This document shows positions 20,348 to 42,350 of a stretch of DNA of 64,000 nt, in pieces. The DNA lies in IMG/VR virus record IMGVR_UViG_3300045988_142085, positions 32,001 to 96,000 of that record; one strand, 5' to 3'. Under the pieces are notes generated by a model, which ran no database searches, was not told where the DNA came from, and worked only from the letters and a program-made list of their open reading frames with translations. The DNA is from a virus. The translations under genes were made by a program, and so were the position numbers. Position 1 is the first letter of the stretch, and every line of letters starts with the position of its first letter.

Positions 20348-20692
20348 TCAGATAGTTATTATCGCTGAGCTTTTTATCTCAGCCTCTGGAGATTTCTCTC
20401 ATTTTCATCGACTAGTCAGTTCTAGTCCAGCTTAGCGTACCTTTTCATCTCTTCCTAAATAGGACAAAAGTCTAAACAAGTGATGGGGCCTCTTGGAGAT
20501 ATTATATTCTTTATTTAAATAAAGGTTCAATCTCTACGCGTTGCGCCTGTTAATAATTTTAACTATTAACTTCGGTCTCTGATTAGCATATGTTTTTACA
20601 CTTAGCCTTCCAGTTTAATTCCCCATTAATAATCTAAGATCTTCGTTTAGAAGTTGATCTTAGACGGCAATAAATTTTTATAAAATTTCTTT
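20348..20692 (-). mobile_element. group I-like intron (family A, ORF-less) splitting the Walker A codons of uvrD
   Basis: Exon 1 ends ...GGA TCT GGT (GAGSG); exon 2 begins AAA ACT (KT). Intron ends CUG (omega G). Shares GGAAGGCUAAG...AUAUGCUAAUC...GCGCAACGCGUAGAGAUUGAACC core with the clpX, AAA and stop-codon introns. Confidence 0.7.
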
Positions 20693-20787
20693 ACCAGATC
20701 CAGCACCTGCATTAACGATAAATTTACCTTCAAATTTCTTCGCGACAGGCAGTTGTTGTTCATTTAAATTTTTTAATAATTCTGACA
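20693..20787 (-). CDS. uvrD: UvrD-like helicase, exon 1 (N-terminus through GAGSG of P-loop)
   Basis: ATG at 20787 with AGAGGA RBS. MSELLKNLNEQQLPVAKKFEGKFIVNAGAGSG. Confidence 0.7.
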
Positions 20788-20865
20788 TAGTATAATCCTC
20801 TCTAAATATTTTAATTACTTAGGCATACATCTTATTATATTATAGGCCATATGCCTAAATAATTA

Positions 20866-20897
20866 AAGCCGATAGAAATTAATCTATCGGCTCTTAT
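20866..20897 (-). terminator. rho-independent terminator
   Basis: AGCCGATAG...CTATCGGCT hairpin plus TTAATTATTT on the minus strand. Confidence 0.5.
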
Positions 20898-20903
20898 AAT
20901 ATA

Positions 20904-21083
20904 TTAAATATTGTTAATGAATTCAGGTACACCATCATAGAATTCTTTTTTCTTAGAATCTTCTTCGGTTTTACCGTTCAACATAATTTTTTGAATTTCT
21001 TCTTGACAAGTTTGACCTACAAAACCTTGAGTTTCATATTCAACAGTACCGTCAGCCTTAATAGTAACTTCGATTTTTTTCAT
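20904..21083 (-). CDS. small hypothetical protein (59 aa; start at internal ATG with AGGAGG RBS)
   Basis: TAGGAGGTTTTCAA-ATG-AAAAAAATC. The track ORF extends upstream but lacks an RBS there. Confidence 0.5.
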   Translation of the reverse strand: MKKIEVTIKADGTVEYETQGFVGQTCQEEIQKIMLNGKTEEDSKKKEFYDGVPEFINNI

Positions 21084-21092
21084 TTGAAAACC

Positions 21093-21125
21093 TCCTAAAA
21101 ATAAAATAGCGGGGAACGAGTCCCC
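21093..21125 (-). terminator. rho-independent terminator
   Basis: GCGGGGAC-TCGT-TCCCCGC hairpin plus TATTTTATTTTT on the minus strand. Confidence 0.6.
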
Positions 21126-21145
21126 GCATATCATTATTTAAATTA

Positions 21146-21562
21146 TTATGCCAAGCATTCCAATTTAATTTCTTGGTTACTTTGAGCAATGATATTAACC
21201 ATATAACCAGCAGAACGAGCAGCTTTAACTACTTTATAAGAGTTATAGATCATACCAAGCTTTTCACTAAATTGTTTAATATTAGTGCCAGAACCATAGA
21301 AATCACCACGAACTTCAACAGAAAAATCATCGTTAAATACGAGACCTACATGAGCTTTATGATTGCGATCATGGAAAGATACAGTAGCATTAACTTCACG
21401 TTGGTCACGAGGAATAACGATCATACCAGAAGCATCGAGAGTTTTACCGTCGAAATCGATATCGAAGTCTTTATTAAATTCTTTGTCCATCATTGCTTCC
21501 ATGAAATCTTTGCGAGATACATCTTTAAGAGTTTCTACTTTTTGTTTTAAATATTGAGACAT
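21146..21562 (-). CDS. hypothetical protein
   Basis: 138-aa ORF. Confidence 0.55.
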   Translation of the reverse strand: MSQYLKQKVETLKDVSRKDFMEAMMDKEFNKDFDIDFDGKTLDASGMIVIPRDQREVNATVSFHDRNHKAHVGLVFNDDFSVEVRGDFYGSGTNIKQFSEKLGMIYNSYKVVKAARSAGYMVNIIAQSNQEIKLECLA

Positions 21563-21626
21563 TATAATGTCCTCCTTTGAAAAATGTATAGATATCTATA
21601 TGCAAACGGCGACATGCCGTAATTGC

Positions 21627-21995
21627 TTAACTATTCTTACGAACAAATTCAAATTCTTTAGGAAAATATTTCTTAATGAATTCTTTTTTAACTGTATTTC
21701 TAATGTTTTCACTGTCAACACTATTATAATGCGGATTGCCAGGCGTGTCAAGAAATATGTTATTAACACTAGACAATAGATCGACTAAAGTACTATATAC
21801 AGGAACTGTTTGCTCAGTTAAGACTTTAAAATCTGAAATATTCTGAAGACAAATATTAACGTCTCGAATTAAGATATCGAGCTCTTTTTTCATTTGTTCT
21901 TCCGCTTTTTTATCTAACTTTTCAAACAGTAATTCTGCCTTTTTGCGATTACTTATTTGTCGATTACTATTAGGATCGAAAGTAACGATTGCCAA
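21627..21995 (-). CDS. hypothetical protein
   Basis: 122-aa ORF. Confidence 0.5.
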   Translation of the reverse strand: MAIVTFDPNSNRQISNRKKAELLFEKLDKKAEEQMKKELDILIRDVNICLQNISDFKVLTEQTVPVYSTLVDLLSSVNNIFLDTPGNPHYNSVDSENIRNTVKKEFIKKYFPKEFEFVRKNS

Positions 21996-22009
21996 ATTAA
22001 AAATCCTTT

Positions 22010-22549
22010 CTATTCAGTTAAATAATTAGATTTGCTAGACTTTTTTACTGGCTCGAGTAAGCTCGCTTTCTTTTCACTTGCATATACTGCAAATTTACGA
22101 GCATGTTCTTCGAGTGCTGCAATAGAATCAGAAGAACTTTTAGCTACAGGAACAATTGTCATTACGGCTTCTTCGATAAGACCTTGAGTAACTTCTTTAC
22201 GGTCATTAACGAATAATACGCGTTGAAGATTAATGATAGTTTGTTCGATCTCAGCACCAGTAAAACGATCGATAGCATTAACGAGATATTCTAAATCTGC
22301 TTTAGATTTGAATTTCAAGCCATATTTTTTAATATAAATAGATAGGATTTCTTGAGCTTCTTCATTATTAGGGATAGAGAAGTACCATTGAGTATCTAGA
22401 CGACCAGCACGCATTAATTCTGGAGGCAACTTGGTGATATCATTACTAGTGAATACAGAAAAGCTGTTTTCATTTTCATGCAGGAATGTCAATAAACGAC
22501 TCATTACACGAGCAAGAGTGCCAGCATCACTTTGATGGCTAGATGCATA
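22010..22549 (-). CDS. AAA+ ATPase, exon 2 (sensor / C-terminal helical part)
   Basis: YASSHQSDAGTLARVMSRLLTFL...TKLPPELMRAGRLD equals the AAA box VII/sensor-2 region. Preceded by omega G. Confidence 0.65.
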   Translation of the reverse strand, partial: YASSHQSDAGTLARVMSRLLTFLHENENSFSVFTSNDITKLPPELMRAGRLDTQWYFSIPNNEEAQEILSIYIKKYGLKFKSKADLEYLVNAIDRFTGAEIEQTIINLQRVLFVNDRKEVTQGLIEEAVMTIVPVAKSSSDSIAALEEHARKFAVYASEKKASLLEPVKKSSKSNYLTE

Positions 22550-24061
22550 CAAATGTTATTAACCTGTATATTTTTACATACAGCTCTGGAGGTTTTCCTC
22601 ATTTTCATCGATTAGTTAATTCTAATCCAGTTTAGCGTAACTTTTCACCTTAATTAAGATTCATAGGGTTGGGGCCTCTTGGTAGGATTATATCTTTTCA
22701 CCTACTACGCGTTGCGGCTGGCTTAACTTTGTTAAGCCTTCACCTCTGATTAGCATATTGTATATTAATACAACTTAGCCTTCCAGATTTTTTCCCCAAA
22801 GCTAGTCATCATCTTCTGAATCTGTTGATGACGACACGGCTATGCTATTTACAAATTGTCCTTTTTGATTTCTCATCCAAGGATGTTCTTTTTGATGGCA
22901 TTCTGTACATAATGAAAGACCATTTTTAAGATCATTAAATTCTATACTTTTAACAATGTCATCTAAATTATTATTATATTTTTGTACTATGCTATAAAGT
23001 TGTTCGATATGATGAACTATTATATCGGATCGTGATCCACATTTTTGACATGTATAATTGTCTCTTTTTAAACAAGAATTTTTCCAAATTTCATATTCTG
23101 TAGTGCTTCTTAAATAATGAGCAACTTCTGTATATGTTTCTTTTTCTTTATGTAAATATAATTTTTTATGCTCGTTACAACAAAAATGTTTTTTATGATT
23201 TTTAAATTTAGATTCTATTATTTCATATTTTTTATTACAATAATCACAAGAAACTTCAACACGTTTTTTTCGTGCCTCATGTGAACATTTACTAGAACAA
23301 TAGATATGTTTATTTTTTCCTTCAAAAAAATTTTTTAATGCGCCAATTGGCTTATTTATTTTTTCTCCGCAGAAATCACATTTTAATTCTTCTATTGTTT
23401 TTTTATTTTTTTCTTTTATATCTATTGCGTTATGATGCATACATTCTATTGAACAATATGATATATTTTGATTTCTTTTAGTTTGTTTTTTTACATAACT
23501 ATTTGGTAATTTAAATTTTTTTTGACAAAATTTACATGTAAACTCTGTAAAATTACCACGTATATCATTTTCTTTGTTGTAAATTTTGCAACATTCAGAA
23601 GAGCAGAAATAATGCTTTTTATTTTTTAATTTTTGCTGAACCTTAAATTCTTTTCCGCAACAATCACATTTTACATTTAATTGATTGCGCCCCCAATGTT
23701 TATCTTTACACTCTCGGGAACAAAATTTTATAGGTTGATTTTTTTTATTAGCATTTTTAATTTCTCGTTCACTTCTTTGAAACATATTACCACATTCAAG
23801 ACAAATATAATCATGATATACAATATTTTTATGCGCGTATTCATGCATACATTTCTTTGAACAAAATTGTGGTTCAAAATTTGGATTTTTTCTTTTTTGA
23901 AAATCAACTTCACATTTTCTTCTTTTAAAATCAGACATGCAGTTCTTGCATGCATAGTACAACCATATATTTTCTTTATTTTTCATAATTATCTCCTGTT
24001 AATATTCAGTATACATCTATATATTACAGGAGTTTCTTCAATTTGTAAATTTTAAAATTTA
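22550..24061 (-). mobile_element. group I-like intron (family A) carrying an HNH homing-endonuclease ORF, inserted after the Walker B region of the AAA ATPase gene
   Basis: Exon 1 ends GGC GGT directly before a TAA. The 3' 250 nt (22550-22800) is near-identical in architecture to the uvrD intron. HE ORF has its own AGGAG RBS 72 nt into the intron. Confidence 0.7.
22802..23986 (-). CDS. intron-encoded HNH endonuclease with N-terminal array of about 10 CxxC...CxxC zinc-ribbon modules
   Basis: C-terminal CQKCGSRSDIIVHHIEQL...SLCTECHQKEHPW (HNH). Repeated C-x2-C-x(12-20)-[CH]-x(2-4)-[CH] modules upstream. Confidence 0.7.
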   Translation of the reverse strand: MKNKENIWLYYACKNCMSDFKRRKCEVDFQKRKNPNFEPQFCSKKCMHEYAHKNIVYHDYICLECGNMFQRSEREIKNANKKNQPIKFCSRECKDKHWGRNQLNVKCDCCGKEFKVQQKLKNKKHYFCSSECCKIYNKENDIRGNFTEFTCKFCQKKFKLPNSYVKKQTKRNQNISYCSIECMHHNAIDIKEKNKKTIEELKCDFCGEKINKPIGALKNFFEGKNKHIYCSSKCSHEARKKRVEVSCDYCNKKYEIIESKFKNHKKHFCCNEHKKLYLHKEKETYTEVAHYLRSTTEYEIWKNSCLKRDNYTCQKCGSRSDIIVHHIEQLYSIVQKYNNNLDDIVKSIEFNDLKNGLSLCTECHQKEHPWMRNQKGQFVNSIAVSSSTDSEDDD

Positions 24062-25123
24062 ACCGCCGAGGACTTTTTCCGCTTCATCGATTAGGATAAC
24101 ACATTGTTTAAGTTCTCTTACTTGATTTAAGGCTCGTTCCATATTGCCTTCAGATGCGCCGACTAGACCTTGCATAATTTTACTTAAGTTAATATTTACT
24201 AATGGTACTTTTAACGTAGCTGCAATAATACTAGCTGCTACAGTTTTAGAACAACCAGGAACACCGAAAGCAATAAAGCCTTTAGGTTTCTTAATGCCGA
24301 GTTGTTTTGCTTCGTCTGTATAGAATTTAGGTAAAGTGGAAACATATTTTTTAAAAGCATGATAGCCACCCATGTCATTCAAAGACATTGTTGGATGAGA
24401 AATTTCTAACATACTTCCGTCGAAGTTTTCAGTTTTAAACTTATGAATATCGGCTACGCTTATATTACCAGATTTTGAACAATATTCTAAACATTGAAGC
24501 ATTTGAATATATGTTAAACCTAATAGTGCTTCGACACATTGTAATTTTTCGTCGCCAGTATGATACTTATTGAGATAAAGCTCGATTTCTTTAGCTGTCA
24601 AAGCATCTAAAGAAATACGATAAGCATAGTCAGCAAGCTCTTCAGGTGGAGCAAATGTTGCGACTACAAATACTGGAGCACCATTGCCTTTAAATGCCAA
24701 TACATCTAATAAAATTTTAGAATACATTGGATTTTTAAGGGCCATAGGTTCTACAAATAGATGAGGCGTATCTTTTTTATCTGGATTACCGACTTCTAAA
24801 AGATACTGATCATATTTATTTAAATCCGGTGTTACTTCACTTTTAATATCTTTAAGATAATTGAAGGAACACTGTTTATTATTTGCTACTAATTTTTTAA
24901 GATCGATAGATCCATAAGGATATCGTTGTGTACTAAGATATACTTTCTTAGTTTCAGAATTACCAAATGCAGCATCGAGAGAAAAATCTTCAAGATTTTG
25001 ACCTGCATCACTTAAAGAATTTAAAACGTAAGACATACCGCGTTCTAATTCTTCTGTTTGAATCCAAATTAATGGATTATATCCGCTTTTAAGACCAGAT
25101 TTAGATAACTTATTAAATTCCAT
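24062..25123 (-). CDS. AAA+ ATPase, exon 1 (Walker A GVPGCSKT, Walker B ILIDEAE)
   Basis: FGVPGCSKTVAASIIA...CVILIDEAEKVLGG. Confidence 0.7.
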
Positions 25124-25137
25124 ATTTTCCCTTCCTT

Positions 25138-25608
25138 TTAGCCTACGAATTGAACTTGTTCGTCTTCAGGTAATACTGTATTAATTTTTTCAATGAAATT
25201 GATTACATTAGCTGCTGTTTCAGATACATCGACTTTAGCAGCTCGTGTTGTAGAATCTTGAGGCCAAGATTCGATTTCTTTATACATAGCCTTAAAGTCT
25301 TTGTCACATAGCTCCCATACTTTTTCCATAAGATTACGAGCCAAGAATAAATTAATGAAATTTTGATATTCATTCATGTTTTCGAGTGCTACTTTTTTAA
25401 CGATAGCTTGTTTAATTAGTGTTTCAATTTCGTTATCCCAATCGAAATGATGCTCGACTTCGATATTTTCATCGTTGACAACACCAGTAATTTTAAGTAC
25501 AGCATCGTCTTTATCTATGGTTAATACAGAATTTAATTTAAATGCTTTTTCTTGCTGATCGAAATTAAAAGTCTTATTAAAATAAGTGTCTTTAATGATT
25601 ACTTCCAA
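25138..25608 (-). CDS. hypothetical protein
   Basis: 156-aa ORF. Confidence 0.5.
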   Translation of the reverse strand: MEVIIKDTYFNKTFNFDQQEKAFKLNSVLTIDKDDAVLKITGVVNDENIEVEHHFDWDNEIETLIKQAIVKKVALENMNEYQNFINLFLARNLMEKVWELCDKDFKAMYKEIESWPQDSTTRAAKVDVSETAANVINFIEKINTVLPEDEQVQFVG

Positions 25609-26204
25609 AACTCAACGCCTCCATCTTTTTTAATCCCCATATCGGAATATTGATTAATATTATTATATACTTTAATAGTTTTATTATCTAAACTATATTG
25701 ACTTAAGTCGACTACTTTTTGATTATTACTACCGATGAAACTACGCATTACATTCGTATGTGTATCGTCATAAATACGTTGATGTTCATCATATTGTCCA
25801 TCGACTAATACATCGATAGTATTAAATAATTCTTCATATTGCTCTGGATTTTCTTTTAACATATCTTCATATGTATGCCAACTAATCACAAGGATATGAT
25901 AATTATATTTTTTAAGTAGCTTACAAAGTTCGATTAAGCCTTCTAATTGATCTGTAGGTTCGCCGCCAACTATTGTTACGCTCTTAACGCTACACATGTC
26001 TTCTAGGCGATCTACGATAGATTGAATTGATACATGAGAACCTTGTTCTCGCTGCCATAGTTCATAATTAAAACAACCGCGACAAGGATCACCTTCTTCG
26101 GCTTTACGACAGCCAGCGAAGTATAGTTCACTCCTAAGATTATCTTGAACACTTGGGCCTGCAGTCCGAATGTTGATGCGATAATCGTATAAATTAATAT
26201 TCAT
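25599..26204 (-). CDS. nrdG: NrdG-like anaerobic ribonucleotide reductase activating protein (radical-SAM-related), atypical Cys spacing
   Basis: Aligns with T4 NrdG: GP..R..LF.AGC...C.GCFN..LW, VTIVGGEPTDQ, ILVISWHTYEDM, IDVLVDGQYDE, GSNNQ. Cluster motif here is C-x9-C-x2-C. Confidence 0.5.
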   Translation of the reverse strand: MNINLYDYRINIRTAGPSVQDNLRSELYFAGCRKAEEGDPCRGCFNYELWQREQGSHVSIQSIVDRLEDMCSVKSVTIVGGEPTDQLEGLIELCKLLKKYNYHILVISWHTYEDMLKENPEQYEELFNTIDVLVDGQYDEHQRIYDDTHTNVMRSFIGSNNQKVVDLSQYSLDNKTIKVYNNINQYSDMGIKKDGGVEFWK

Positions 26205-26206
26205 AC

Positions 26207-26245
26207 TAATTCTCCATAAATAAAAAAGCCAGACCCTTATCGGAT
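26207..26245 (-). terminator. rho-independent terminator
   Basis: GUCAGAUCC-GAUAA-GGGUCUGGC (two G.U pairs) plus UUUUUUAUUU on the minus strand. Confidence 0.45.
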
Positions 26246-26437
26246 CTGACTTTTCTCAACATCATGCTTACAATTTAGACATCGGAAGATATCTTTATTC
26301 TTAAGTTGTAAGAATTCTTTTTGTCGAGCATTATATCGAAACTCATAAGTTTCGACTTTCTCGAAAGTTCGTCCTCCACAACGAGGACATTTAAAATACA
26401 GTTTATCTTCAGGATCTGTAATTAACATATTATTCAC
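26237..26437 (-). CDS. zinc-ribbon protein
   Basis: CPRCGG...CLNCKH. Confidence 0.5.
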   Translation of the reverse strand: MNNMLITDPEDKLYFKCPRCGGRTFEKVETYEFRYNARQKEFLQLKNKDIFRCLNCKHDVEKSQIR

Positions 26438-27047: not shown

Positions 27048-27113
27048 GACAAAATCCTTTCTGTTAAAATACTAATTTATACATAGTATTATAGCAGAAA
27101 GGATAGATTTTGT

Positions 27114-29157: not shown

Positions 29158-29159
29158 AA

Positions 29160-29765
29160 TTAACTTTCTTCTAGTTCTTCGAGCTTAGCTTCAGAATCAC
29201 GAATTTCTTCGACTTCTTTTTCGCTAAGATCTTCAAATGTACCAGAAACCATATTAAGCAACTTTTTAAACTTATCTGGATTAGCAAGCATATCTTCACG
29301 GAACGCCATTTTACCGTTCCATTTATCTAACACTTCTCCAGTGTTAGGATCAATTTGTTGCATCCATGCACCAGCTTTATGAATGATGCCCATATCGACT
29401 AATTCATCGAGCGTACTTAAAATTTGTTCAATGCCTTGACCAAATATAGCAAAGTAGCTAAATTTACGATACGGGAATTCACCTGGAATAGCGTGATTTT
29501 TAGTAATCTTACAGTTAATTTTAATACCGTCTTCTTTACCGATAGGATCACTATCTAAGATACTACCTTTACGCATTTCGACAATCATTATACTGCCGGT
29601 TCTAATTGCTAGACCACCAGCTAATACAAGATTGTCGCCATACATACTAAAACCACCGATATTCGTAGTCAAATGCTGGATGAGAATCATAGCCGTGTGA
29701 TATTTACTAATTAAAGAAACAAATTTTGCTATAATTCTACTATTCATACGCGCTTGGCTTTTTGC
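29160..29765 (-). CDS. recA: RecA/UvsX-like recombinase, exon 3 (C-terminal half)
   Basis: SQARMNSRIIAKF...NTNIGGFSMYGDNLVLAGGLAIRTGSIMIVEMRK equals RecA ARMMSQAMRKL...[29 protein letters not shown]. 5' boundary is approximate. Confidence 0.7.
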   Translation of the reverse strand, partial: AKSQARMNSRIIAKFVSLISKYHTAMILIQHLTTNIGGFSMYGDNLVLAGGLAIRTGSIMIVEMRKGSILDSDPIGKEDGIKINCKITKNHAIPGEFPYRKFSYFAIFGQGIEQILSTLDELVDMGIIHKAGAWMQQIDPNTGEVLDKWNGKMAFREDMLANPDKFKKLLNMVSGTFEDLSEKEVEEIRDSEAKLEELEES

Positions 29766-30137
29766 CGTGGACTATATCATTATCCTATTATATATAGGAT
29801 ACCTAGTTTTTGGATTTAATGGGATTTCACCAACCCTAGATTAGGGCCCTACTCCTTTTGCCATATTTATATCTTAGCGTCTGGCCAATGGGATAGTCTC
29901 TGAACTTTATTCCTTTAAGAATATTAGCTGCTGATTATCTATTGTTATGTCACTTAGCACTGTCTCTAGCTTTTATTTCAGCATATGACAAACTAATTAT
30001 TTTTTCTGTCTTTCGACAACATTCACATTTATTATTTCTAATTATGTTGTAGTTAATTAGTTATTAAGAACTTCCAGCAATTTACTAGGTTTTCACATTG
30101 TATTACTACAATATGCCTTCCAGCACGTGTTTGGAGG
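29766..30137 (-). mobile_element. group I-like intron (family B, ORF-less), recA intron 2
   Basis: Contains UUGCUGGAAG...GAGACUAUCC...GAUAUAGUCCACGG. Boundaries are uncertain to within about 10 nt. Confidence 0.55.
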
Positions 30138-30438
30138 CGACGCTTACGTCTTTAAGACTCTTATTAGCTTCGGATTCAGGAACCAAAGCTTTTAGAGTAT
30201 TAATACAGAACAAGTCTATAGCACCAGTTTGAATTAATGCTTCAGCTTGATCGATACAGTCTTCTGCAGTATGATCTCGATCATATTGAATGAAATAAAA
30301 TCGTTCTGGATCGATACCAAATTGATTGACCATATAATCTAAGCTTAAAGATGCTTCACTTTCAATCCATAAGGCAAAATGTCCTTCTGGATTTTCACGA
30401 TGCATTTTACCGATTGTTTCAAGCACTAAACTAGTTTT
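30138..30438 (-). CDS. recA: RecA/UvsX-like recombinase, exon 2
   Basis: KTSLVLETIGKMHRENPEGHFALWIESEASL...IDLFCINTLKALVPESE equals RecA KTTLTLQ...AFIDAEHALD...VDVIVVDSVAALTPKAE. Confidence 0.7.
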
Positions 30439-30652
30439 CCTTTATACCCTCGGTTTCCCGATATTTATTAGGGGAGTAGACTATATCATCATCTTAATTA
30501 AGATGTTCTGCGCTTCCGTTACGAATGTAACGTACTCCTTTCGGATAGTCGTTGGGGCGCAATTAAGCTGCCTGCTGATTACCTCGATGGGCTTCCCAGC
30601 ATATCACAGAATTTGCATATAATTATCACTAATTATAGGGGCAAAATTAATT
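30439..30652 (-). mobile_element. group I-like intron (family B, about 214 nt), recA intron 1, in Walker A codons
   Basis: Exon 1 ends ...GAC TCG GGT (ADSG); exon 2 begins AAA ACT AGT (KTS). Intron ends ...AAAGG. Contains CGACUAUCCGAAAGGAGUA ... GAUAUAGUCUACUCC (P7-like). Confidence 0.65.
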
Positions 30653-30922
30653 ACCCGAGTCTGCAACGCCAGCGATAGTCGTAATTTTCCCAATCGGAAA
30701 ACCACCGCCAGTTGCTGCATTAAAGTTAACAGATGGTGTCGGAATAAATCGAATATTAAGCTGTTCCTGAACTTTAGGATCACTTAATCGACCGACAACC
30801 ATGTTGTTCTTTTTCTTAGCCAAGTTAGCCATTACAAGATCTAATCGCTTACGTCTTTCGACGTCAGTTAAGACTTGAGAATTGCTAGCTTCGACAATTG
30901 GTTCAGCTTTCTTTCTTGCCAC
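30653..30922 (-). CDS. recA: RecA/UvsX-like recombinase, exon 1 (N-terminus to GVADSG of P-loop)
   Basis: ...NAATGGGFPIGKITTIAGVADSG equals RecA LG.GGLPRGRIVEIYGPESSG. Confidence 0.7.
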
Positions 30923-31990: not shown

Positions 31991-33422
31991 CTATCAATGT
32001 TAAACGCTTATCGTTTTTAAAATATTTTTTAAGAACATTTTGGAGCTCACGTTTAACCTCTTCTAAAATAGAAGTGCTATTTTTTAGAATACCTTTAATT
32101 TCTTTATTACGAGCTTCCAGCTCTGCGATCTTAGTATCGTAATCTCGTTGACTTAACTTAGTAAAGTCATTGATTTTCATACCAAGAATATAATCGGCCG
32201 CTTCTTCGCTTATACTAAGAAGCTTCATTAATTCACTTTTAGGTTCGTCGCTAGTTTTAATTAGTTCTAAAATCTTAGCACTATTAGCGATCGCCAATTT
32301 AATATTGTTGTATCTAAATAATAGTTTATTATTTTTATTTAACTCTAATGTTAATTTATTCTTAACAATATTATGATAATGAATTAATAGCTTCTTAACA
32401 ATAGAAACTAATGGCATATGCTCGATAACTTTATTATTATAAATAATAGTAAAGATACTGTTAAAGCTATCTTCTAATTTAGTCTTTTTAAAAACTTGTT
32501 TAATTAAGTCATCGACAGATTGACCACGTGCTGGTTTAATACTAATATTAAGAACGCCTTTTGCCGAGAAATTTTTAAACTCTCCACAAAGTTTATTTTC
32601 TCTTAATTTTTTTAAACCAGACATGATAACACTAACATTAGTTGTGTATGGTATTGATGTAAATACTAATTCTTTTTTATTTTTAATTGTATATTGGCCA
32701 CGGATAACGAACTTACCTTTGCCATTTTCATATACGGATTCTATATCGTCAGGATTCATAATAATCCCTTCGGTCGGGAAATCTGGTCCTTTGATATACT
32801 TCATTAAGAATTTAGTATTAATATCTTTACCTTTGTTAACCTGATCGATAGTCTTAATTAAGGCCGTAATGACTTCTGTCGCATTATGAGACGGAATCAT
32901 AGAGCTTACACCAGCAGCAATACCGTTAGTATAGTTACACAAAATATTCGGGAAAAATCCTCCTAAATATTTTGGTTCTAATCCTTCGTTGTCATACGTT
33001 GGCATCCATGGTACCGTAGCTTCATTAGTGTCTCCTAGGAGCAGATCTCCAGTCTTACTAAGTCTACTCTCGACGTACCTCATGGCTGCAGGTGGATCAT
33101 TTTCTATACTGCCAAAATTGCCACTACCATCTCCTAATGGATATCTGGCAGAAAATGTCGCCGTCATATTAACGAGAGCGCCATAAGGACCATCTAAGCT
33201 ATGTGGATGATATTGGCCGACAGTATCGCCGATAACTTTAGCAGCTTTTTTAAACGGTTTATTGTTATTTAAACCTAAATTGTTCATCGACAATAATACA
33301 CGTCGTTGAACTGGTTTTAAGCCGTCATTAAGTAACGGGATAGCTCGCTCGTATACAATGTGATTAGCATATTTACTAAAATTTTTAACGAGCAAGTCGC
33401 TTAATTCAATTTCAATTTCCAT
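31965..33422 (-). CDS. type II DNA topoisomerase, A-type (GyrA/ParC/T4 gp52-like) subunit
   Basis: NDGLKPVQRRVLLSMNNLGL...GQYHPHSLDGPYGALVNMTATFSARYPLGDGSGNFGS. Confidence 0.8.
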   Translation of the reverse strand: MEIEIELSDLLVKNFSKYANHIVYERAIPLLNDGLKPVQRRVLLSMNNLGLNNNKPFKKAAKVIGDTVGQYHPHSLDGPYGALVNMTATFSARYPLGDGSGNFGSIENDPPAAMRYVESRLSKTGDLLLGDTNEATVPWMPTYDNEGLEPKYLGGFFPNILCNYTNGIAAGVSSMIPSHNATEVITALIKTIDQVNKGKDINTKFLMKYIKGPDFPTEGIIMNPDDIESVYENGKGKFVIRGQYTIKNKKELVFTSIPYTTNVSVIMSGLKKLRENKLCGEFKNFSAKGVLNISIKPARGQSVDDLIKQVFKKTKLEDSFNSIFTIIYNNKVIEHMPLVSIVKKLLIHYHNIVKNKLTLELNKNNKLLFRYNNIKLAIANSAKILELIKTSDEPKSELMKLLSISEEAADYILGMKINDFTKLSQRDYDTKIAELEARNKEIKGILKNSTSILEEVKRELQNVLKKYFKNDKRLTLIGEPDDKSK

Positions 33423-35797: not shown

Positions 35798-36099
35798 CGA
35801 CCGTACCCTCGGTTTCCCGATACTTCATAAAGGGACTAGACTATATTTTTATCCGTTCTGGATAGCACCTCTATAGTCGTTACACATTTACGATATTTTT
35901 TTAATATCGACTTAGCACGGTATTGCCATTGCTAGCCATTTCTGGCCCATCAGGTTCTCTTGATTATAGGAGCGCCTTCGCACATAATGTCTTATTCAAC
36001 TCCAACCGTAAGCATATTATTAGTTAATATACACCGCCTTGATAGCGTTAGGGTGCTTGTAATCTCTTGCATTCCTGCAAGGACGACTAATTTTTATTA
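35798..36099 (-). mobile_element. group I-like intron (family B, ORF-less), gyrB intron 3
   Basis: Exon 3 ends ...ATG TCA GAT GCT GAT before TAA. Intron ends GGUACGGUCG (omega G) before GAC GAC GGG. 3' region near-identical to the recA intron 1 3' region (CCGAGGGUA...). Confidence 0.65.
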
Positions 36100-36315: not shown

Positions 36316-36624
36316 TTAAGAGATATTTGTTTGGACTATATCTTACTTGTTAAAGCAAGTCCTACCGTTTCGATTTTTTAAAAATCTACTCTACTCAGTT
36401 CATATATATACTATATGCTTTTCGATAGTCTCTGAACGCGTTACAGATATCCGTTTTTTTTCCGTTCTGTAATTTCGCTGCGGATAATTTATAGTTTTGA
36501 CAATGTTACTATACCTAAGCCATTACGCTTTGCCATTATTATATCACTATAATAATTTAGTTGCCAATACTAATTTAAACTTCCCCGCAATTAGATAGGT
36601 TTAACGAGAGCGATTCTGTCTTTT
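36316..36624 (-). mobile_element. group I-like intron (family B, ORF-less), gyrB intron 2
   Basis: Lies between ...ELFIVEG and DSAGG. Contains UUGGACUAUAUC ... CGAUAGUCUCUGAACG. Exact junction ambiguous (the simplest omega-G model drops one Gly). Confidence 0.55.
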
Positions 36625-37503
36625 ACCCTCGACAATAAACAGTTCGCATTTTTTAGGGTCGTCACTATGACAATCGCTAAGTTTTTCTACGACAGTAGAT
36701 TTTAATGCTTTTTTCTGTTTACGTGCATTTTCTCTTGCCTTTTTAGCATCGAGTCTAGCTTTAATACTAAGATTAATTTTACTAGTCAATTGCTTAGCAA
36801 AAGTTTTTTTCTTTTTGAGCTCTTCTCCGAAAGACTCGGAAATTAATTCTTTAACTTGATCTCGAATCTCGGGCATCTGTAAATATAGTTTATTTTGACC
36901 TTCGAATTTTGGTTCGATAGTCTTAATATTTACGATAGCTACAAGACCTTCGATCGCATCGTCTTGTGTTAAATCTTTAATATTTAACTCTTTTAATGCT
37001 TGTACTATACCAGCTTTAAACCCATTTAAATGATCGCCGCCGTTTAAAGTATTGATATTATTTACAAACGTTAAAATCGTATTAGAATATAATCCATCAC
37101 AATAATTTAATACGACATGAACAGATGTATTATCTTTTTCTCCTTTAAATTCTAACGCTTTACCGATAGTTTCTTTAGGAGTAATATCTTTTAGATAATC
37201 TAAAAGAGTCGAAGATTTTAAGTTTACCCATTCTTCGCCTAAATTATATTTGATGGTAAGACCTTCGTTAAGATAACTTAACTGCTTAAGTTTCTTTTCG
37301 AGATCTTTAATATTAATAGGATCTGGATAGATTTCAGGATCTAATCGATATTCAATACGGGTACCCGTCTTTTTGGACTTTCGTCCTTTTTTAAGTTCTT
37401 GACTTAAGATACCTTTTTTAAAGCCAATAGACCATTCATATCCATCACGCCATACTGTGGCATTAAAATATTCGGAAACCGCATTAACGCAAGAACTCCC
37501 AAC
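36625..37503 (-). CDS. gyrB: GyrB-like subunit, exon 2 (transducer domain to start of Toprim)
   Basis: VGSSCVNAVSEYFNATVWRDGYEW... equals GyrB [23 protein letters not shown]... Ends CELFIVEG. Confidence 0.7.
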
Positions 37504-37804
37504 CAAAATCTTCAATAAAGAACGCTACTTCTTTATCAGTTCTCTTATGAACTTCTTTATGTTTCCATAAAGTTGAGACTATATCTTCTTAGACTTCCAC
37601 TTCGAGCACCAATAACTTGTGCCCTACTCCCTTACGGGATAGTCGTTGAACTTTATATATATACTTTTTAATATATATCTTAGCTGCTGATTACCCGCCC
37701 ATACGGGCTTTCCAGCAATTCAAAAGTTTTTACAACGGCATTTATTTACCGTTTAAGCCACCAGTAGCAGAGACCTGTCCGCTAAGTGAAACGAATTTTC
37801 CTCC
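37504..37804 (-). mobile_element. group I-like intron (family B, ORF-less), gyrB intron 1
   Basis: Exon 1 ends ...TTG CAT GCT (U). Intron ends ...GAUUUUG (omega G). Exon 2 is GTT GGG AGT, restoring SLHAVGSSCVNAVS, which matches [14 protein letters not shown]. Core UUGCUGGAAAGCCC...CGACUAUCCCGUAAGGGAGUA...GAUAUAGUCUCAAC. Confidence 0.7.
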
Positions 37805-38077
37805 AGCATGCAAAGAGCCTACCGCCAATTGTATTTGAGGAATGCCATATTTTTCATTAAGTGCGACTGGGATACCACGACCTTCGTCAGTGATAATCAT
37901 TACTTGAGTTTCGGGATTGTATTCTACAGTTATACATTTACCGAACCCAGTAACGAATTCGTCGACAGCATTGTCGATAATTTCGTGAGCACAATGATTT
38001 GGGCCATTCAAGTACATTTCTTTTCGTAGTCGAACATTGTCCGGATATTCGAGTACTAAAATTTCTTGTTCAGCCAT
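37805..38077 (-). CDS. gyrB: GyrB-like subunit, exon 1 (GHKL ATPase N-terminus)
   Basis: GPNHCAHEIIDNAVDE...ITDEGRGIP...GSLHA. Confidence 0.7.
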
Positions 38078-38457
38078 TAATATACGTGGTCCTCATCTGC
38101 AATTAAATCATAATATCGATATAATAATGCACGAACTGTTTCATTAATAGATTCGTGTAGGCTAACATCTTTATTTAAAGTTACCTCTGCTTTAAATTTT
38201 CTAGGTTTAACAATTAAACCATTAGATGTAGTTAGCATATCGACACGTCCATGTCTACCAGAAATACCAATTCTAAATACGAATTGGAACAGTCGTCCAT
38301 CATAATCGACTTGATATGGTGTACCATATTTTTGTTTAGATAAAGCTTCGCCGACGTGGCCGGCAATATTATCTAAATCACTTTTAAGCTCTTGCTCTTT
38401 TTTAATAGCATCTTCCCAGGCTTTAATTCCCTGGTCGATATTATCTAAATAATCCAT
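38077..38457 (-). CDS. hypothetical protein
   Basis: 126-aa ORF. Confidence 0.5.
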   Translation of the reverse strand: MDYLDNIDQGIKAWEDAIKKEQELKSDLDNIAGHVGEALSKQKYGTPYQVDYDGRLFQFVFRIGISGRHGRVDMLTTSNGLIVKPRKFKAEVTLNKDVSLHESINETVRALLYRYYDLIADEDHVY

Positions 38458-38486
38458 GTATATCCTTTCTTTTTAAAAAGAAAAAC

Positions 38487-38516
38487 TGGGTGCAGCGATC
38501 ACCACTACACCCAGTA
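38487..38516 (-). terminator. rho-independent terminator after ssb
   Basis: CTGGGTG...CACCCAG hairpin plus TTTTTCTTTTT on the minus strand. Confidence 0.5.
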
Positions 38517-38525
38517 TACCATAGA

Positions 38526-38945
38526 TTAGCCAAGTAAATCTACAATAGGTTTCGCTTCTGCTTTTGGAGCATCGGCAAAGCTATCAAAGTTAGAAGCTTC
38601 GGATGCACCAGAGCCATCACGATGTTCATAATACATGCTGTCTACGATTACGTCAGTAGTATATACTTTAGTACCGTCTTCCTTTTCATAGGAACCAGTG
38701 CGGATAGCACCTTGTACAATAATTTGTTGACCTTGGTTTTTGTGAATTAAATCAGCAGTCATACCGAATGCTGTGCATGTAATGCTATCCCAATCTGGAT
38801 ATTCAGCATCTTTTGCTTTAAAATTACGTTGGCAAGACAAAGAGAAACGTAGCACGGATTTCTTTTCACCTTCACCTGGTTTGTAGCTATAAATACCTTT
38901 ACCTTCAGAATTAACACGGCCTTGAATAATTACTTGATTCAACAT
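38526..38945 (-). CDS. ssb: single-stranded DNA-binding protein (OB fold)
   Basis: MLNQVIIQGRV...EKEDGTKVYTTDVIV plus a flexible acidic/Gly-rich tail. Confidence 0.7.
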   Translation of the reverse strand: MLNQVIIQGRVNSEGKGIYSYKPGEGEKKSVLRFSLSCQRNFKAKDAEYPDWDSITCTAFGMTADLIHKNQGQQIIVQGAIRTGSYEKEDGTKVYTTDVIVDSMYYEHRDGSGASEASNFDSFADAPKAEAKPIVDLLG

Positions 38946-39007
38946 AATAATAATTTCCTTTCGATAATTAAAAATTATTTAAATAAATATATATCTTAAG
39001 CATTTAA

Positions 39008-39916
39008 TTATGCTTTAAGAACAGATAAGATGGCTTCGATATTATAACGATTCAATTGCTTAACATCGTTTAATACGCCGCCAGACAATGCTTCCATAGC
39101 TTCTACGATTTGCTCGTCGCTGTAGCGATTAATTTCTTCACGCAAATCTAAGTAGTGAGCTAAGTAATCTAAGTAATACGGAGTAATATTAGACAAAGAA
39201 ACTTGATTTCTATCTTCGTCTTCAAGAATTTCGTCGAGATATCCTTGTAGTACTTTTTGATTCCCAGCATCTTCTTTAACAAATGTTTTTACTTTAGCAA
39301 TTTGACCAGCGAGATCTTTAGCGATTTGTGTCGTCATTTCATCTTCGCGTTTATATTTACTAACGTAGCAATCGAGCTGGCGCTCGTCGAATTTAAGAGC
39401 TTCGACAACTTCAGGATCGGCTTCATCTTTTTCTTCGAGCTCAGCTGTTTCTTCAGCAAAAGATTTAAAACCGTTATCGGCTTCATAGTCTACGTCTTCA
39501 GAACCCAATAATTCCATTGGAGATGCAACTTCGATAGGATTGCCGTCAAAATCAGTAACCGGAATTTCTTCCTTTACTTCTTCTGCAGAAGCTGGTTCTT
39601 TAATAATGACTTTTGGCTCTTCAGCTTCAATAGCAACTGGTTTACTTTCAGGTTCTTCCTTGACCAATTCAGCTTTGGGCTTCCGGCCACGCTTTTTAGG
39701 TTTTTCTTCTTTTACTTCCTCAACCTTATCGGTTGCTTCAGCTTTCCCAGCTACTTCATGTTTTACAGCATGAGCGTCGAGAGAAGAAATAATACCACTG
39801 TTATACATATCCAACAATAATTTACTGGATGCTGTATTAAAAGTGGCAGGATCTTCGTCTAACAGACGTTTAGCAATGACCAATAAATGATCAAATGCTT
39901 TTTCAGTGTAATTCAA
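39008..39916 (-). CDS. hypothetical acidic protein
   Basis: 302-aa ORF. Confidence 0.5.
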   Translation of the reverse strand: MNYTEKAFDHLLVIAKRLLDEDPATFNTASSKLLLDMYNSGIISSLDAHAVKHEVAGKAEATDKVEEVKEEKPKKRGRKPKAELVKEEPESKPVAIEAEEPKVIIKEPASAEEVKEEIPVTDFDGNPIEVASPMELLGSEDVDYEADNGFKSFAEETAELEEKDEADPEVVEALKFDERQLDCYVSKYKREDEMTTQIAKDLAGQIAKVKTFVKEDAGNQKVLQGYLDEILEDEDRNQVSLSNITPYYLDYLAHYLDLREEINRYSDEQIVEAMEALSGGVLNDVKQLNRYNIEAILSVLKA

Positions 39917-40728
39917 TTACTTTGCCTCCTTATTTAAATAATATGAATATTTATTATTAACATCTTCCGAAGTAATACGAATTTCTTTCGTATTCTCATC
40001 GATGTCGAATAATTTATCGTCGACTAAACCTTGTACGACGCTTTTAAGTGCACGAGCACCTGTTTTTCGATCGTAGGCAAGTTTAGCAATAGTATCGACA
40101 GTATCGTCATCGAAAGTAATTTCGATATCATACATGCCGATCAATTCTTTAATTTGTTTAAAGATTGCGTGTTTTGGAGTCGTTAAAATTTGTTTTAAGT
40201 CTTCCACACTCAATTCTTTAAGCGGGCAAATTACTGGTAATCGACCTAATAATTCTGGAATAATACCAAAGTTATCGAGATCTTCAGGTAAGATATAATC
40301 GATTACGTCGTTATACTTAGATTTTTCTTCCAATACGTCTTTAGATGCTTCACTAGAGAAACCGAGGCCCGTATCTAAATCTTTATTTAACCTTGCCGCA
40401 ATCTTCTTTTCAATACCGGTAAATGCACCACCACAAATAAATAAAATATTAGTAGTATCAATTTCAACAGTAGGAGATGACATAGCAAATCCACCTTGTT
40501 GATCGTTAGACTTAATAGCGACTTTGCCGCCTTCAACGAGTTTTAATAACTCATATTGTACGTCACGACCACCGATATCACTACCTTGAGAGCCAGCATT
40601 TTTAGGATCTCGAGCAGCAATTTTATCGATTTCATCGATATAGACAATACCTTGTTGAGTTCGTTCGACATCGTTACCGGCTTCACGGTATAGTTTGGCT
40701 AAGATGCTATTAACGTCTTCACCAACGA
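39917..40728 (-). CDS. clpX: ClpX ATPase, exon 3
   Basis: FVGEDVNSILAKLYREAGNDVERTQQGIVYIDEIDKIA...ILFICGGAF...GRLPVICPLKEL...RKTGARALKSVV equals the ClpX core. Confidence 0.75.
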
Positions 40729-41967
40729 CAATTTGTTACCCTATAGGCTTTTTATCCTATAGCTCTTACAGTTACCTGTAAGTTCAGCGTACATTTTTTC
40801 AGTAAAAATATTATACAAACTGAAGTGATCACTCTTGGGAATATTTTATTCTTATCATTAAGGTTCAATTCCTACGCGTTACGGTGTCAAAAGCCTTTTA
40901 AAACTTTTGATTACCTCGGTATTTTCCACATGGGTGCTTCACCGATTTTGATCACTTTAATTACTCTGACTTATTTGTACTTTCATCAGAGAGGGCTCGT
41001 TTTAAAGATAAATATCTTTTCATTTTTCTATCGAGAAAAATAGAAGCATTAGAATATAAATAATCATAAAAAGATAATGTTAAATTTTTCTTATAAAGAA
41101 CTAATTTTTTATATGTGATATAATCATCTATTTTAAATTCAAAATTTGACAGTATTTGATTAATTGATTCTGCTAATAAAGAAGAACCAACAACTATAAC
41201 TGTTTGAATTTTTTTTATATTTTTAGTGATATATCCATTTCCATCAAAATATCCACGGATAAAACTTGAAATAAGATTTTCTTTTATATTTGGCATAAAA
41301 GCATTTTCTGTTTTATTATAAACTACACCTAATTTAAATAAATCTTCTACTAATTCTTTTGACACAATAGATACAACAGATGTTTTTCTATTTTTTCTAT
41401 GCTTAATTTCTAAATTTTTGGCGCCAATATCATTAATAAATTTATTTAAATGGTTATCATCAACAGAGCTTAACTCAATTGATAATCTATTTTTATAAAC
41501 ATTACCATCAGCCATAATAAAACCCAGCCAATATGCTTGTTTTTCTGACTCTATTTCCTTAAAAAAACTTTTATCAAACGTTACATTAGGTCTTTTATAA
41601 GTAAATCTCATATTAACATTTTTCTTTTTTAAGTATGCTGAAAATGATTTAACAGAAATTTTTAATTGTTCTGCTACTTTATACATAGGAATATTTTCTT
41701 CTACATATAGTCTTAATCCTTCAACATATCTAGGATCTTCTATTTCAAAATGGACATTTTTTTTAATTTCTATTCCATTTCGTTTAAAATATCTTCTTAA
41801 AGAACCTACATCTACATTATATTTTTTTGCTAAAGTAGAAGTAGATACTCCTTTATTTTCAGTATATTCTTTTATTGCTTTTTTATATTTATCTTCATTT
41901 TTATATCGTGTCATATTATGACCCTCCTTATGGTCATAATTATATTACACAATATATTTGTCTGTCA
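40729..41967 (-). mobile_element. group I-like intron (family A) with LAGLIDADG homing-endonuclease ORF, clpX intron 2
   Basis: Exon 2 ends ...TCG GGG T. Intron ends CAAAUUG (omega G). 3' part contains ACGCGUAGGAAUUGAACCUUAAUGAUAAGAAUAAAAUAUUCCCAAGAG (family A core). HE ORF has an AAGGAGGG RBS 50 nt into the intron. Confidence 0.65.
40961..41914 (-). CDS. intron-encoded double-motif LAGLIDADG homing endonuclease with N-terminal HTH-like repeats
   Basis: YWLGFIMADGNV and IRGYFDGNGYI motifs. Confidence 0.75.
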   Translation of the reverse strand: MTRYKNEDKYKKAIKEYTENKGVSTSTLAKKYNVDVGSLRRYFKRNGIEIKKNVHFEIEDPRYVEGLRLYVEENIPMYKVAEQLKISVKSFSAYLKKKNVNMRFTYKRPNVTFDKSFFKEIESEKQAYWLGFIMADGNVYKNRLSIELSSVDDNHLNKFINDIGAKNLEIKHRKNRKTSVVSIVSKELVEDLFKLGVVYNKTENAFMPNIKENLISSFIRGYFDGNGYITKNIKKIQTVIVVGSSLLAESINQILSNFEFKIDDYITYKKLVLYKKNLTLSFYDYLYSNASIFLDRKMKRYLSLKRALSDESTNKSE

Positions 41968-42052
41968 ACCCCGATTTGGTGAGACTACTTGCATCGACAA
42001 TAACACATGGTCGACCAAGATATTTTGCTAATTGTTTAATTAAGAATGTTTT
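41968..42052 (-). CDS. clpX: ClpX, exon 2 (28 codons: KTFLIKQLAKYLGRPCVIVDASSLTKSG)
   Basis: Equals ClpX [30 protein letters not shown]. No start codon, so not in the ORF track. Confidence 0.65.
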
Positions 42053-42350
42053 CAGTTGTGTTATCGTAAAAGTTTTTTATCTTCTACTTCTTATAGTTTC
42101 CTATAAGCTCAGCATACCTTTTTAGCGTATATTTTTTTACCAAACGCTAGAGCGGCCTCGTGGTAGAATTATATTCTTATTTTAAAAATAAGGTTCATCT
42201 ACTATGCGTTGCCCCTGACTAGAATATTATTTCTAGCCTTCGGTTCAGATTAGCATATGCACTTTATGCACTTAGCCTTCCTGCTTAATTCCGCTCAAAT
42301 AATCCAGAAGTTCATGGTTTTTTCTTCTAGAACGGCAAACTTTTACAGCC
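42053..42350 (-). mobile_element. group I-like intron (family A, ORF-less), clpX intron 1, in Walker A codons
   Basis: Exon 1 ends ...TGC GGT (GSSGCG). Intron is GGCUGUAAAAGUUUGCCG...AACACAACUG (omega G). Exon 2 begins AAA ACA (KT). Core GGAAGGCUAAG...GCAUAUGCUAAUC...UAGUCAGGGGCAACGCAUAGUAGAUGAACC. Confidence 0.75.

Follow-up and report, generated by a model that had tools for sequence, protein, structure and literature searches.

Three interruptions, which we judge to be genuine group I introns of two ribozyme classes, split the uvrD, clpX and recA genes of a phage at one and the same point of the Walker A motif, or P-loop (GK[T/S]), precisely where the Gly codon GGT meets the Lys codon AAA. 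The genes lie in a 64,000-nucleotide (nt) stretch of viral DNA (IMG/VR virus record IMGVR_UViG_3300045988_142085, positions 32,001 to 96,000; hereafter the window), in which every gene is on the minus strand and whose own numbering is used for all coordinates below. The window is part of an uncultivated jumbo phage, because IMG/VR holds a clade of contigs of ∼200–236 kb, several of them from human-microbiome samples, that share 91–93% DNA identity with it at the recA locus. Its DNA has a G+C content of 31.5%. A Megablast comparison of the region with the phage collection gave no match among deposited phages, and the spliced UvrD shares at most 37% protein identity with the UvrD of Bacillus jumbo phages.

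We favour, with moderate confidence, endonuclease-driven homing at the DNA level as the explanation of this shared position, filtered by the need of the ribozymes for GGU at the end of the 5' exon and by the conservation of the motif. The introns of the window are most likely endonuclease-less derivatives of mobile introns that carry a LAGLIDADG endonuclease gene in the loop of helix P1, as comparison with related phages suggests.

Three interrupted Walker A motifs and two ribozyme classes

Direct reading of the three genes places each split between the same two codons, and joining the exons gives UvrD GAGSG↓KTS, ClpX GSSGCG↓KTF and RecA GVADSG↓KTS (↓ marks the splice junction). All three 5' exons end in U and all three introns end in G. 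The spliced proteins have Pfam matches that cross the junctions (UvrD-helicase, 1–264 of 271; AAA_2, 3–166 of 166; RecA, 2–261 of 262), and ClpX also matches ClpB_D2-small. The junctions of all three are fixed independently by intron-less alleles of close relatives, in which the insertion is missing to the nucleotide. A sequence-only reading of the window had proposed three introns at GGT↓AAAAC in the Walker A motifs of these genes, and the junctions, the precise intron-less alleles and the full-length Pfam matches agree with it. It had also called the three ATPase genes unrelated: they are indeed non-orthologous, but all encode P-loop NTPases that are deeply homologous in that very loop. Its statement that the three introns lack an open reading frame (ORF) stands, as no sense-strand ORF was found in the uvrD intron, clpX intron 1 or recA intron 1 of the window.

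The proposed division into two families is likewise borne out. The uvrD intron and clpX intron 1 (family A) share a GGAAGGCTAAG / GCAACGCGTAG core, and recA intron 1 (family B) matches the Rfam group I model RF00028 with 64.8 bits against a threshold of 50 bits, over the full model (1–253). The same model, run on isolated 340–380-nt stretches with the two family A elements, returned only noise and no match even at E ≤ 10. This is probably a limit of model coverage and not evidence against the fold, since P7 of family A reads GCGUA/UACGC, compared with GACUA/UAGUC in canonical introns.

An alignment of 25 family A introns from at least 15 insertion sites gives the fold directly. The 25 base pairs of P3, P4, P7, P7.1 and a 3' hairpin are formed in 625 of 625 cells, and 18 of them show compensatory changes; 0 of 500 shuffles reach the observed value and slid controls are all far lower. 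The crossing of P3 with P7 makes up the pseudoknot of group I introns, in which P4–P6 are enclosed and P8 lies between P3' and P7'. P7.1, the fourth helix, lies between the 5' strand of P7 and P3' and consists of 5 base pairs (bp), all covarying, with a further internal hairpin in a subset of introns. The predicted architecture of family A is IA-like. Within the family, the uvrD and clpX ribozymes represent different sub-types, distinguished by a long or a short P9. We assign family A to group I because (i) the insertions are precisely absent in relatives; (ii) its P4–P5 motif (GGAAGGCUAAG...AUAUGCUAAUC) recurs in introns with the canonical GUUCAGAGACUA...GAUAUAGUCC core (GACUA/UAGUC); (iii) the helices covary; and (iv) copies of it occur in the gyrA genes of phages AR9 and PBS1. 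A group II or other intron type was also considered for family A, and is ruled out by the P3/P7 covariation, the U at −1 and the terminal G.

The copies in AR9 and PBS1, both Bacillus jumbo phages, share ∼70% nt identity with 83–85% of the uvrD intron and belong to the same ribozyme class, so family A is not a new class, only one that Rfam covers poorly. The gyrA gene of AR9 is annotated as a coding sequence joined from three pieces, and Yersinia phage phiR1-37 has a region with a similar match to the uvrD intron. Host gene and site in AR9 differ from those described here, being gyrA and not a P-loop, and the phage collection searched contains nothing closely related to the window phage. A widespread intron class escapes the Rfam group I model.

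Pairing requirements and codon use at the insertion sites

The P1 hairpin, in which the internal guide sequence (IGS) pairs with the end of the 5' exon, is the minimum-free-energy fold in all five 5' regions that were folded (pairings are given in Table 1). P10, which pairs with the 3' exon, covers only 2 bp of AAAAC at uvrD, 3 bp at clpX and 4 bp at recA, and its guide often mismatches AAA in relatives at the same sites. Wherever the 5' junction of a family A intron could be read, which covers more than a dozen genes, GGT closes the 5' exon and the IGS starts with GCC. The 3' exon starts with AAR at about 6 of 17 family A sites, which lies above the expectation for Lys after Gly by a rough estimate and no formal test. 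The GGU half of the target is therefore set by RNA pairing and the AAAAC half only weakly. In a suggested check on P1 and P10 pairing with the exon flanks, GGU is paired by P1 in all three Walker A introns and AAAAC over 2–4 bp only. Guanosine-dependent self-splicing is predicted for both families. In a tail gene of two other loci (L042 and L082; L numbers denote loci in other contigs) no placement of the junction suits both rules: at GGC GG(T)↓...AAG(T)↓GTC the frame requires that 5' exon and intron finish on the same base, be it G or U.

The window contains at least ten group I introns in six genes over ∼40 kb (2759–42350, minus strand): one each in uvrD, an AAA+ gene and a gene for an SNF2-like helicase, two each in recA and clpX, and three in gyrB. 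Eight of the ten, from both classes, come after GGT or GGGT (uvrD, clpX introns 1 and 2, recA intron 1, AAA+, gyrB introns 1 and 2, and SNF2), clpX intron 2 being the one placed after GGG T, and all eight fall in conserved motifs. The exceptions are gyrB intron 3 (GAT↓) and recA intron 2.

Seven canonical Walker A motifs are encoded in the window, and those interrupted are exactly the three with GGT before Lys. The four uninterrupted ones (GPSGCGKS, GCPGSGKS, ASCGAGKT and GMSQSGKS, minus strand, listed at 44653, 7090, 4198 and 45141) use GGC or GGA for this Gly. Once the introns are removed, seven in-frame GGTAAAAC (GKT) strings can be read in the window; the three in true P-loops are occupied, and the four in other proteins, at 50466, 31435, 21448 and 20975, are empty. 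Codon use is biased (GGT, 52% of Gly codons; AAA, 82%; ACT and ACA together, 81%), and the 8-nt identity GGT↓AAAAC is largely forced by the motif and this bias. The coding strand has 677 GGT sites; with ∼680 such sites, the chance that at least three of eight GGT-following introns fall on the three P-loop sites is of the order of 1e-5. Avoidance of GGT in the empty Walker A motifs, as in all 19 intron-less recA alleles considered below, may represent a synonymous 'immunity' to intron invasion.

It is hardly credible that the interruptions are no introns at all, or that their common position arose by chance or faulty annotation. Such a reading could draw on the failure of Rfam to see the uvrD and clpX elements and on the fact that the introns are known here from DNA sequence alone; it is opposed by the precise intron-less alleles, the restored full-length domains, the covariation-backed core, the U at −1 and 3'-terminal G in all three cases, and the occupation of 3/3 Walker A motifs of the GGT type compared with 0/4 of the others, at the chance level just given.

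Family A was also surveyed in other contigs. The survey was seeded on one motif, so that proportions are indicative only, and insertion sites were curated by hand; an automatic junction caller (U at −1, terminal G, P1/P10 score and ORF continuity) gave many false pairs and was dropped. More than 118 IMG/VR contigs contain the seed motif, as do 20 contigs of metagenome-assembled genomes of Clostridia, Sarcina or Bacilli, and comparison of the latter with the window showed no similarity. The family A core (P7) is present in 70 of the 142 matches examined, which form 22 clusters by 3' exon. Family A occupies the Walker A of clpX (G↓KT) at at least 11 loci, with AAAAC or AAGAC as 3' exon, and that of uvrD at at least seven. 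It also interrupts the Walker A of an SNF2-like helicase (L033; GGC ACG GGT ↓ AAA ACT ATT, GSMGTG↓KTIMAM) and of a DnaB-like helicase (L386; GTA GGT ↓ AAA ACC CGA, AGTGVG↓KTRLS). The latter was the one real family A intron among 120 matches to the pattern GATAACA N2–5 TGAAAAC in viral contigs, nearly all the rest being due to chance. Other sites among the matches listed are in (i) gyrA (HG↓T, HG↓D), gyrB (HAGG↓KF), DnaE (DYG↓KIA) and a tape-measure protein (IVG↓KSA); (ii) an AAA+ gene immediately downstream of Walker B (GG↓Y), a structural gene (PV↓S) and a second clpX site (SG↓Y/F VG); and (iii) a dUTPase, a terminase-like gene and a tail gene.

With uvrD, clpX, recA and the SNF2-like and DnaB-like genes, at least five non-orthologous ATPase genes thus have an intron at the G↓K bond of the P-loop, and two ribozyme classes are involved. 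The idea that the P-loop is a recurrent landing site is upheld by the same site in many related phages, and the survey showed the same insertion in two other P-loop genes, those of the SNF2-like and DnaB-like helicases. Two further arrangements were seen in the survey: locus L104 has two introns in one gene, each with its LAGLIDADG ORF in a core loop after the 5' strand of P7 and not in P1, and in the structural gene of L002 and its relatives a family A intron is followed close by by a canonical group I intron with its own ORF.

Alleles in related phages and routes of spread

At all three sites, related phages of ∼230 kb carry the same intron, but with a LAGLIDADG ORF of 300–390 amino acids (aa): L063, L194 and L195 at uvrD; L015, L038, L087, L118 and L222 at clpX intron 1; and L022, L166 and L167 at recA intron 1. 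The SNF2-like L033 also has one, and that of the DnaB-like L386 is decayed. Pfam LAGLIDADG_3 matches the proteins of L033 and L166 and the ORF in clpX intron 2 of the window. In both ribozyme classes the ORF lies in the P1 loop, between the intron 5' end and the IGS, with a reading frame whose final codons pass through the IGS (...YLDRKY...). L020 and L041 have no more of the ORF than a remnant of its 3' end; in the window copies the whole ORF is gone, and the same intron 5' start and IGS are kept. Remnant-bearing and ORF-less copies would be the expected decay phase of a homing cycle.

The endonuclease ORFs (L015, L038, L166, L063 and others, as well as 40961–41914 in the window) end in a conserved ...(Y/F)L(D/K/E)RKY. 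In the P1-loop versions of relatives the frame runs on through the IGS into P2, so that coding and ribozyme functions overlap. The L033 endonuclease has additional N-terminal domains of the HTH_7 type.

Intron-less alleles in related phages, proposed as a check, were found in precise form at all three sites. The uvrD intron is precisely absent in L172–L180 and L196, clpX intron 1 in L199–L211, and recA intron 1 in L139–L157, being present in L158–L165. Intron-less uvrD and clpX alleles have 94–99% protein identity over the queried segment, and recA introns 1 and 2 occur in all four combinations of presence and absence among phages with 91–93% DNA identity. Vertical descent of an ancient intron from the common ancestor of P-loop genes is ruled out, as the introns are polymorphic among phages that are ∼92% identical.

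The exon flanks differ along with the introns. In recA, the P-loop Gly is GGA, GGG or GGC in 19 of 19 intron-less alleles, and every intron-plus allele reads TCG GGT. Upstream of the site, the two kinds of allele have different synonymous third bases in eight consecutive codons, the proteins being 99–100% identical (147-aa query). This haplotype block is linked to the intron over ∼22 nt on the 5' side, the markers on the 3' side are shuffled and the tract ends vary; P1 accounts only for positions −1 and −4. The same localized block is found in uvrD and clpX, where the intron-plus alleles are homogeneous and the intron-less ones comprise several synonymous versions, and no intron-less uvrD allele has GGT together with AAA. 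The flank haplotype looks like what co-conversion from a diverged donor would predict, possibly with added selection for uncuttable empty sites.

We propose that introns in the ∼230-kb phage clade are gained and lost by DNA-level homing: an empty site would suffer a double-strand break, repair would use an intron-plus allele, and short stretches of flanking exon would be co-converted. Two filters would then act on the insertions. (i) An IGS starting with GCC, which almost every intron of both classes has here, would need GGU at the end of the 5' exon (a U·G wobble plus two G–C pairs), and a short run of U just 5' of the IGS would favour an A-rich 3' exon through P10, so that only Gly-GGT sites before A-rich codons would splice well. 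(ii) Endonuclease targets and intron persistence would both favour the most invariant codons common to many genomes, and the commonest invariant Gly-Lys in replication and repair proteins would be that of the P-loop GK[T/S]. Because the filters coincide, the same G↓K boundary would recur in non-orthologous ATPases. New P-loop sites would probably be seeded by rare cleavage at look-alike P-loop DNA or, alternatively, by a resident intron that captures an endonuclease gene; a move from one P-loop to another would succeed because the new site already fits the IGS. Within this scheme we infer the activity and specificity of the endonucleases, the transfer between P-loops and the relative weight of the two filters.

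The lack of ORFs in the three introns had led the sequence-only reading to reverse splicing in place of endonuclease homing. This step is unsupported in the light of the same-site relatives with LAGLIDADG genes, the polymorphism, the flank haplotypes, the four empty GGTAAAAC sites and the weak P10. In such an RNA-level route, free intron RNA would reverse-splice into transcripts with a GGU↓AAA(AC) string (GGUAAAAC), and reverse transcription and recombination would fix the insertion with no endonuclease. The near-constant IGS (GCC...) of family A in differing host genes would fit it, as would the pairing of P1 with GGU in all three introns, a P10 able to pair two to four A's, the convergence of two ribozyme classes on one string, the AAR starts at about 6 of 17 family A sites and the commonness of ORF-less copies. 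We nevertheless consider it quite improbable. Endonuclease-bearing versions exist at every one of the sites. The flank haplotype reaches well past the 4 nt needed for P1, and it counts against reverse splicing because an intron that enters RNA of the recipient itself should not alter the flanking exons. Only true P-loops are filled among the in-frame strings of the window, P10 is weak at uvrD (2 bp) with guide mismatches to AAA in several relatives, no reverse transcriptase was seen, and a review reports no direct experimental evidence for the pathway (PMC3984707).

The LAGLIDADG proteins are all homologous, with 29–44% identity between sites and 29–41% among P-loop sites. The recA enzyme has its best non-self match in the uvrD enzyme (41%, 112 bits), the uvrD enzyme in turn finds its best ones in those of SNF2 (118 bits) and recA (112 bits), and the clpX enzyme is closest to that at the second clpX site. 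In a neighbour-joining tree of 14 representatives, the enzymes of uvrD, recA and SNF2 cluster with no bootstrap support, and that of clpX falls elsewhere.

The main alternative to transfer of a single endonuclease lineage between P-loops is independent colonization of the most conserved Gly-Lys: separate lineages would have settled in the most conserved stretch of each gene, with no move from P-loop to P-loop, and GGT↓AAAAC would be a by-product of motif and codon bias. The divergence of the enzymes, with no supported clade, speaks for it, as do the different family A sub-types at uvrD and clpX and the other class at recA. Codon bias alone predicts GGT AAA AC[TA], homing endonucleases are known to target codons for critical conserved residues (PMC3984707, PMC12908238), and clustering in P-loops is known for inteins (PMC4760082). 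We still think it unlikely, since it fits poorly with (i) the use of exactly the same G↓K phosphodiester bond in at least five genes, with no scatter within the motif; (ii) the best matches among the recA, uvrD and SNF2 enzymes; (iii) the same endonuclease architecture and P1-loop position in both ribozyme classes; and (iv) the GGU↓AAR preference of family A outside P-loops as well (gyrB GG↓KF, DnaE YG↓KI and tape-measure VG↓KS).

A bolder proposal, which we regard as somewhat unlikely, is that one LAGLIDADG lineage, in the P1 loop of two ribozyme scaffolds, recognizes P-loop DNA itself (GGN...GGT AAA AC). It would home at the level of a protein motif, hop among uvrD, clpX, recA, SNF2-like and DnaB-like genes, and set off an arms race over synonymous codons, with GGT or AAA being avoided by empty P-loops.

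Several points weigh against homing with two filters, the explanation that we prefer. None of the three window introns has an endonuclease ORF, so that for them to move today a co-infecting relative would have to provide the enzyme in trans, and both the cleavage activity of the LAGLIDADG proteins and their target sites at P-loops are predicted. Given 29–41% identity among the P-loop endonucleases and a tree grouping without bootstrap support, single-lineage transfer is a possibility and no more. Instead of co-conversion, selection on P1 (−1 and −4) or mutations that make empty alleles resistant could account for part of the flank blocks. Some intron-less clpX alleles (L201, L204, L217 and L221) carry a perfect GGT↓AAAAC or TGT GGT↓AAG, so site occupancy is not deterministic. 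Finally, site frequencies in the survey are biased by its single seed motif.

Intron inventory of the window and comparison with known systems

The exons and introns of the window are collected in Table 1. The junction GAG GGT↓AAAAG reported earlier in gyrB is present, at intron 2.

Table 1. Coordinates of introns, and of the exons of uvrD, clpX and recA, in window numbering
Feature	Position	Strand	Remarks
SNF2-like helicase intron	2759..3064	minus	Group I, Rfam 66.2 bits; GCA GAG GGT↓ATG AAT
uvrD exon 1	20693..20788	minus	Ends ...GGA TCT GGT (GAGSG of Walker A)
uvrD intron	20349..20692	minus	Family A group I (fold predicted), 344 nt, no ORF; IGS GCCG pairs UGGU; ends ...CTG
uvrD exon 2	18513..20348	minus	Starts AAA ACT AGC (KTS)
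AAA+ ATPase gene intron	22550..24061	minus	Family A; just after Walker B (DEAEKVLGG↓YASS); HNH-like ORF 23986..22802
recA exon 1	30653..30922	minus	Ends GAC TCG GGT (GVADSG)
recA intron 1	30439..30652	minus	Family B canonical group I, 214 nt, no ORF; IGS GCCC pairs GGGU; P10 UUUU pairs AAAA; ends ...AGG
recA exon 2	30134..30438	minus	Starts AAA ACT AGT (KTS)
recA intron 2	29758..30133	minus	Group I, 376 nt; Rfam 44.7 bits, below threshold; junction from intron-less alleles
recA exon 3	29160..29757	minus	
gyrB intron 1	37504..37747	minus	Family B, Rfam 94.2 bits; AAC GGT↓GTT GGG; P1 AACGGU/GCCGUU
gyrB intron 2	36316..36624	minus	GAG GGT↓AAAAG; P1 CGAGGGU/GCUCUCG; Toprim EG↓DSAGG, not Walker A
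gyrB intron 3	35798..36099	minus	GCT GAT↓GAC GAC
clpX exon 1	42351..42776	minus	Ends GGT TGC GGT (GSSGCG)
clpX intron 1	42053..42350	minus	Family A group I (fold predicted), 298 nt, no ORF; IGS GCCGU pairs GCGGU; ends ...CTG
clpX exon 2	41968..42052	minus	Starts AAA ACA TTC; KTFLIKQ...TKSG and first base of a Phe codon
clpX intron 2	40729..41967	minus	Family-A-like ribozyme; LAGLIDADG ORF 41914..40961; junction GGG T↓TC
clpX exon 3	39917..40728	minus	

Several of these introns have features of their own. The Walker A of the SNF2-like helicase in the window (ASCGAGKT, with GGC AAA) is uninterrupted. According to the intron-less alleles L139, L158 and L160, the recA intron 2 junction reads GCC TC↓C...AAAAAG↓C CAA, with a 5' exon that ends in C and not in U. 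The ORF in the AAA+ intron encodes 394 aa with many CxxC pairs and a C-terminal HNH-like CTECHQKEH motif, and a Pfam search with it gave no match at E ≤ 0.001; in relatives this intron occurs with the ORF (L005 and L060) and without it (L026, L040 and L057). For gyrB intron 2, keeping the conserved EGDSAGG would make the intron end ...CUCUUAA↓GAUUCU, with a terminal A instead of the near-universal G, and taking G as the last nucleotide would shift the reading frame. Its P10 is unusually strong (AGAAUC/GAUUCU, 6 bp). Among its relatives L279–L293, an ...AA↓GAU end is found in L279, L280, L283, L285 and L289, the others having the canonical ...UUUG↓GAC or ...CAG↓GAC. Four long stretches (4321–4781, 15650–16100, 52991–53765 and 55628–56026) lack any coding-strand ORF of 90 aa or more and could hold further introns or RNA genes. 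A practical consequence concerns gene callers, which will cut short uvrD, clpX, recA, gyrB and other genes throughout this phage clade.

The elements described here belong to a known type, the mobile group I introns that come with LAGLIDADG endonucleases, and their site distribution parallels that of P-loop inteins. Full-text literature searches of incomplete coverage, which are no proof of novelty, turned up no account of group I introns that recur at the G↓K bond of Walker A. Reviews allow ectopic intron moves by reverse splicing, for which they note no direct evidence, or by relaxed endonuclease specificity (PMC3984707, PMC12908238), and a 2025 paper still terms the gene preferences of phage group I introns 'mysterious' (PMC12350094). 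The combination of a GGU↓ splicing need with conservation of endonuclease targets offers a testable reason for the preference for replication and repair genes. The clade also provides natural matched sets of alleles at several P-loop sites (intron-plus with endonuclease, intron-plus without it and intron-less), usable to measure endonuclease specificity, ectopic homing and target-site resistance, and the distribution of P-loop intron sites looks worth a systematic survey.

Compared with the mobile group I introns of other phages (T4 td, nrdB and nrdD; SPO1 and SP82 DNA polymerase; Twort nrdE and orf142; ΦPA3 RNA polymerase; PMC3984707, PMC12908238), the likenesses are a group I core, here predicted to be self-splicing, an endonuclease ORF in a peripheral loop, insertion at codons for critical residues, sporadic presence in close relatives, probable flank co-conversion and ORF-less derivatives. 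Introns of the T4, SPO1 and Twort type differ from the present case, in which at least ten introns occupy six genes over ∼40 kb and the codon boundary of one motif is used in several non-orthologous genes by two ribozyme classes, with activity predicted. Among the group I introns of nuclear ribosomal DNA (rDNA), too, related introns at separate sites have in common a short string complementary to the IGS (Roman & Woodson; Bhattacharya et al. 2005, PMC1299323). The case for reverse splicing in rDNA rests on ORF-less rRNA introns, whereas the endonuclease-bearing alleles and flank haplotypes described here point to DNA-level homing.

Inteins recur in the P-loops of non-orthologous ATPases including RecA, UvrD, SNF2-type and DnaB proteins (Novikova et al. 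2016, PMC4760082), with DnaB site b, MCM site a and RFC-S site a among many others, and target conservation is the accepted explanation. Inteins act by protein splicing and need Cys, Ser or Thr at the +1 position of the C-extein, whereas the introns described here depend on RNA splicing and need GGU at −1 of the 5' exon, so that their exact G↓K position is set by RNA pairing. They represent an RNA-intron counterpart of intein clustering in ATPase P-loops, fixed to one phosphodiester bond.

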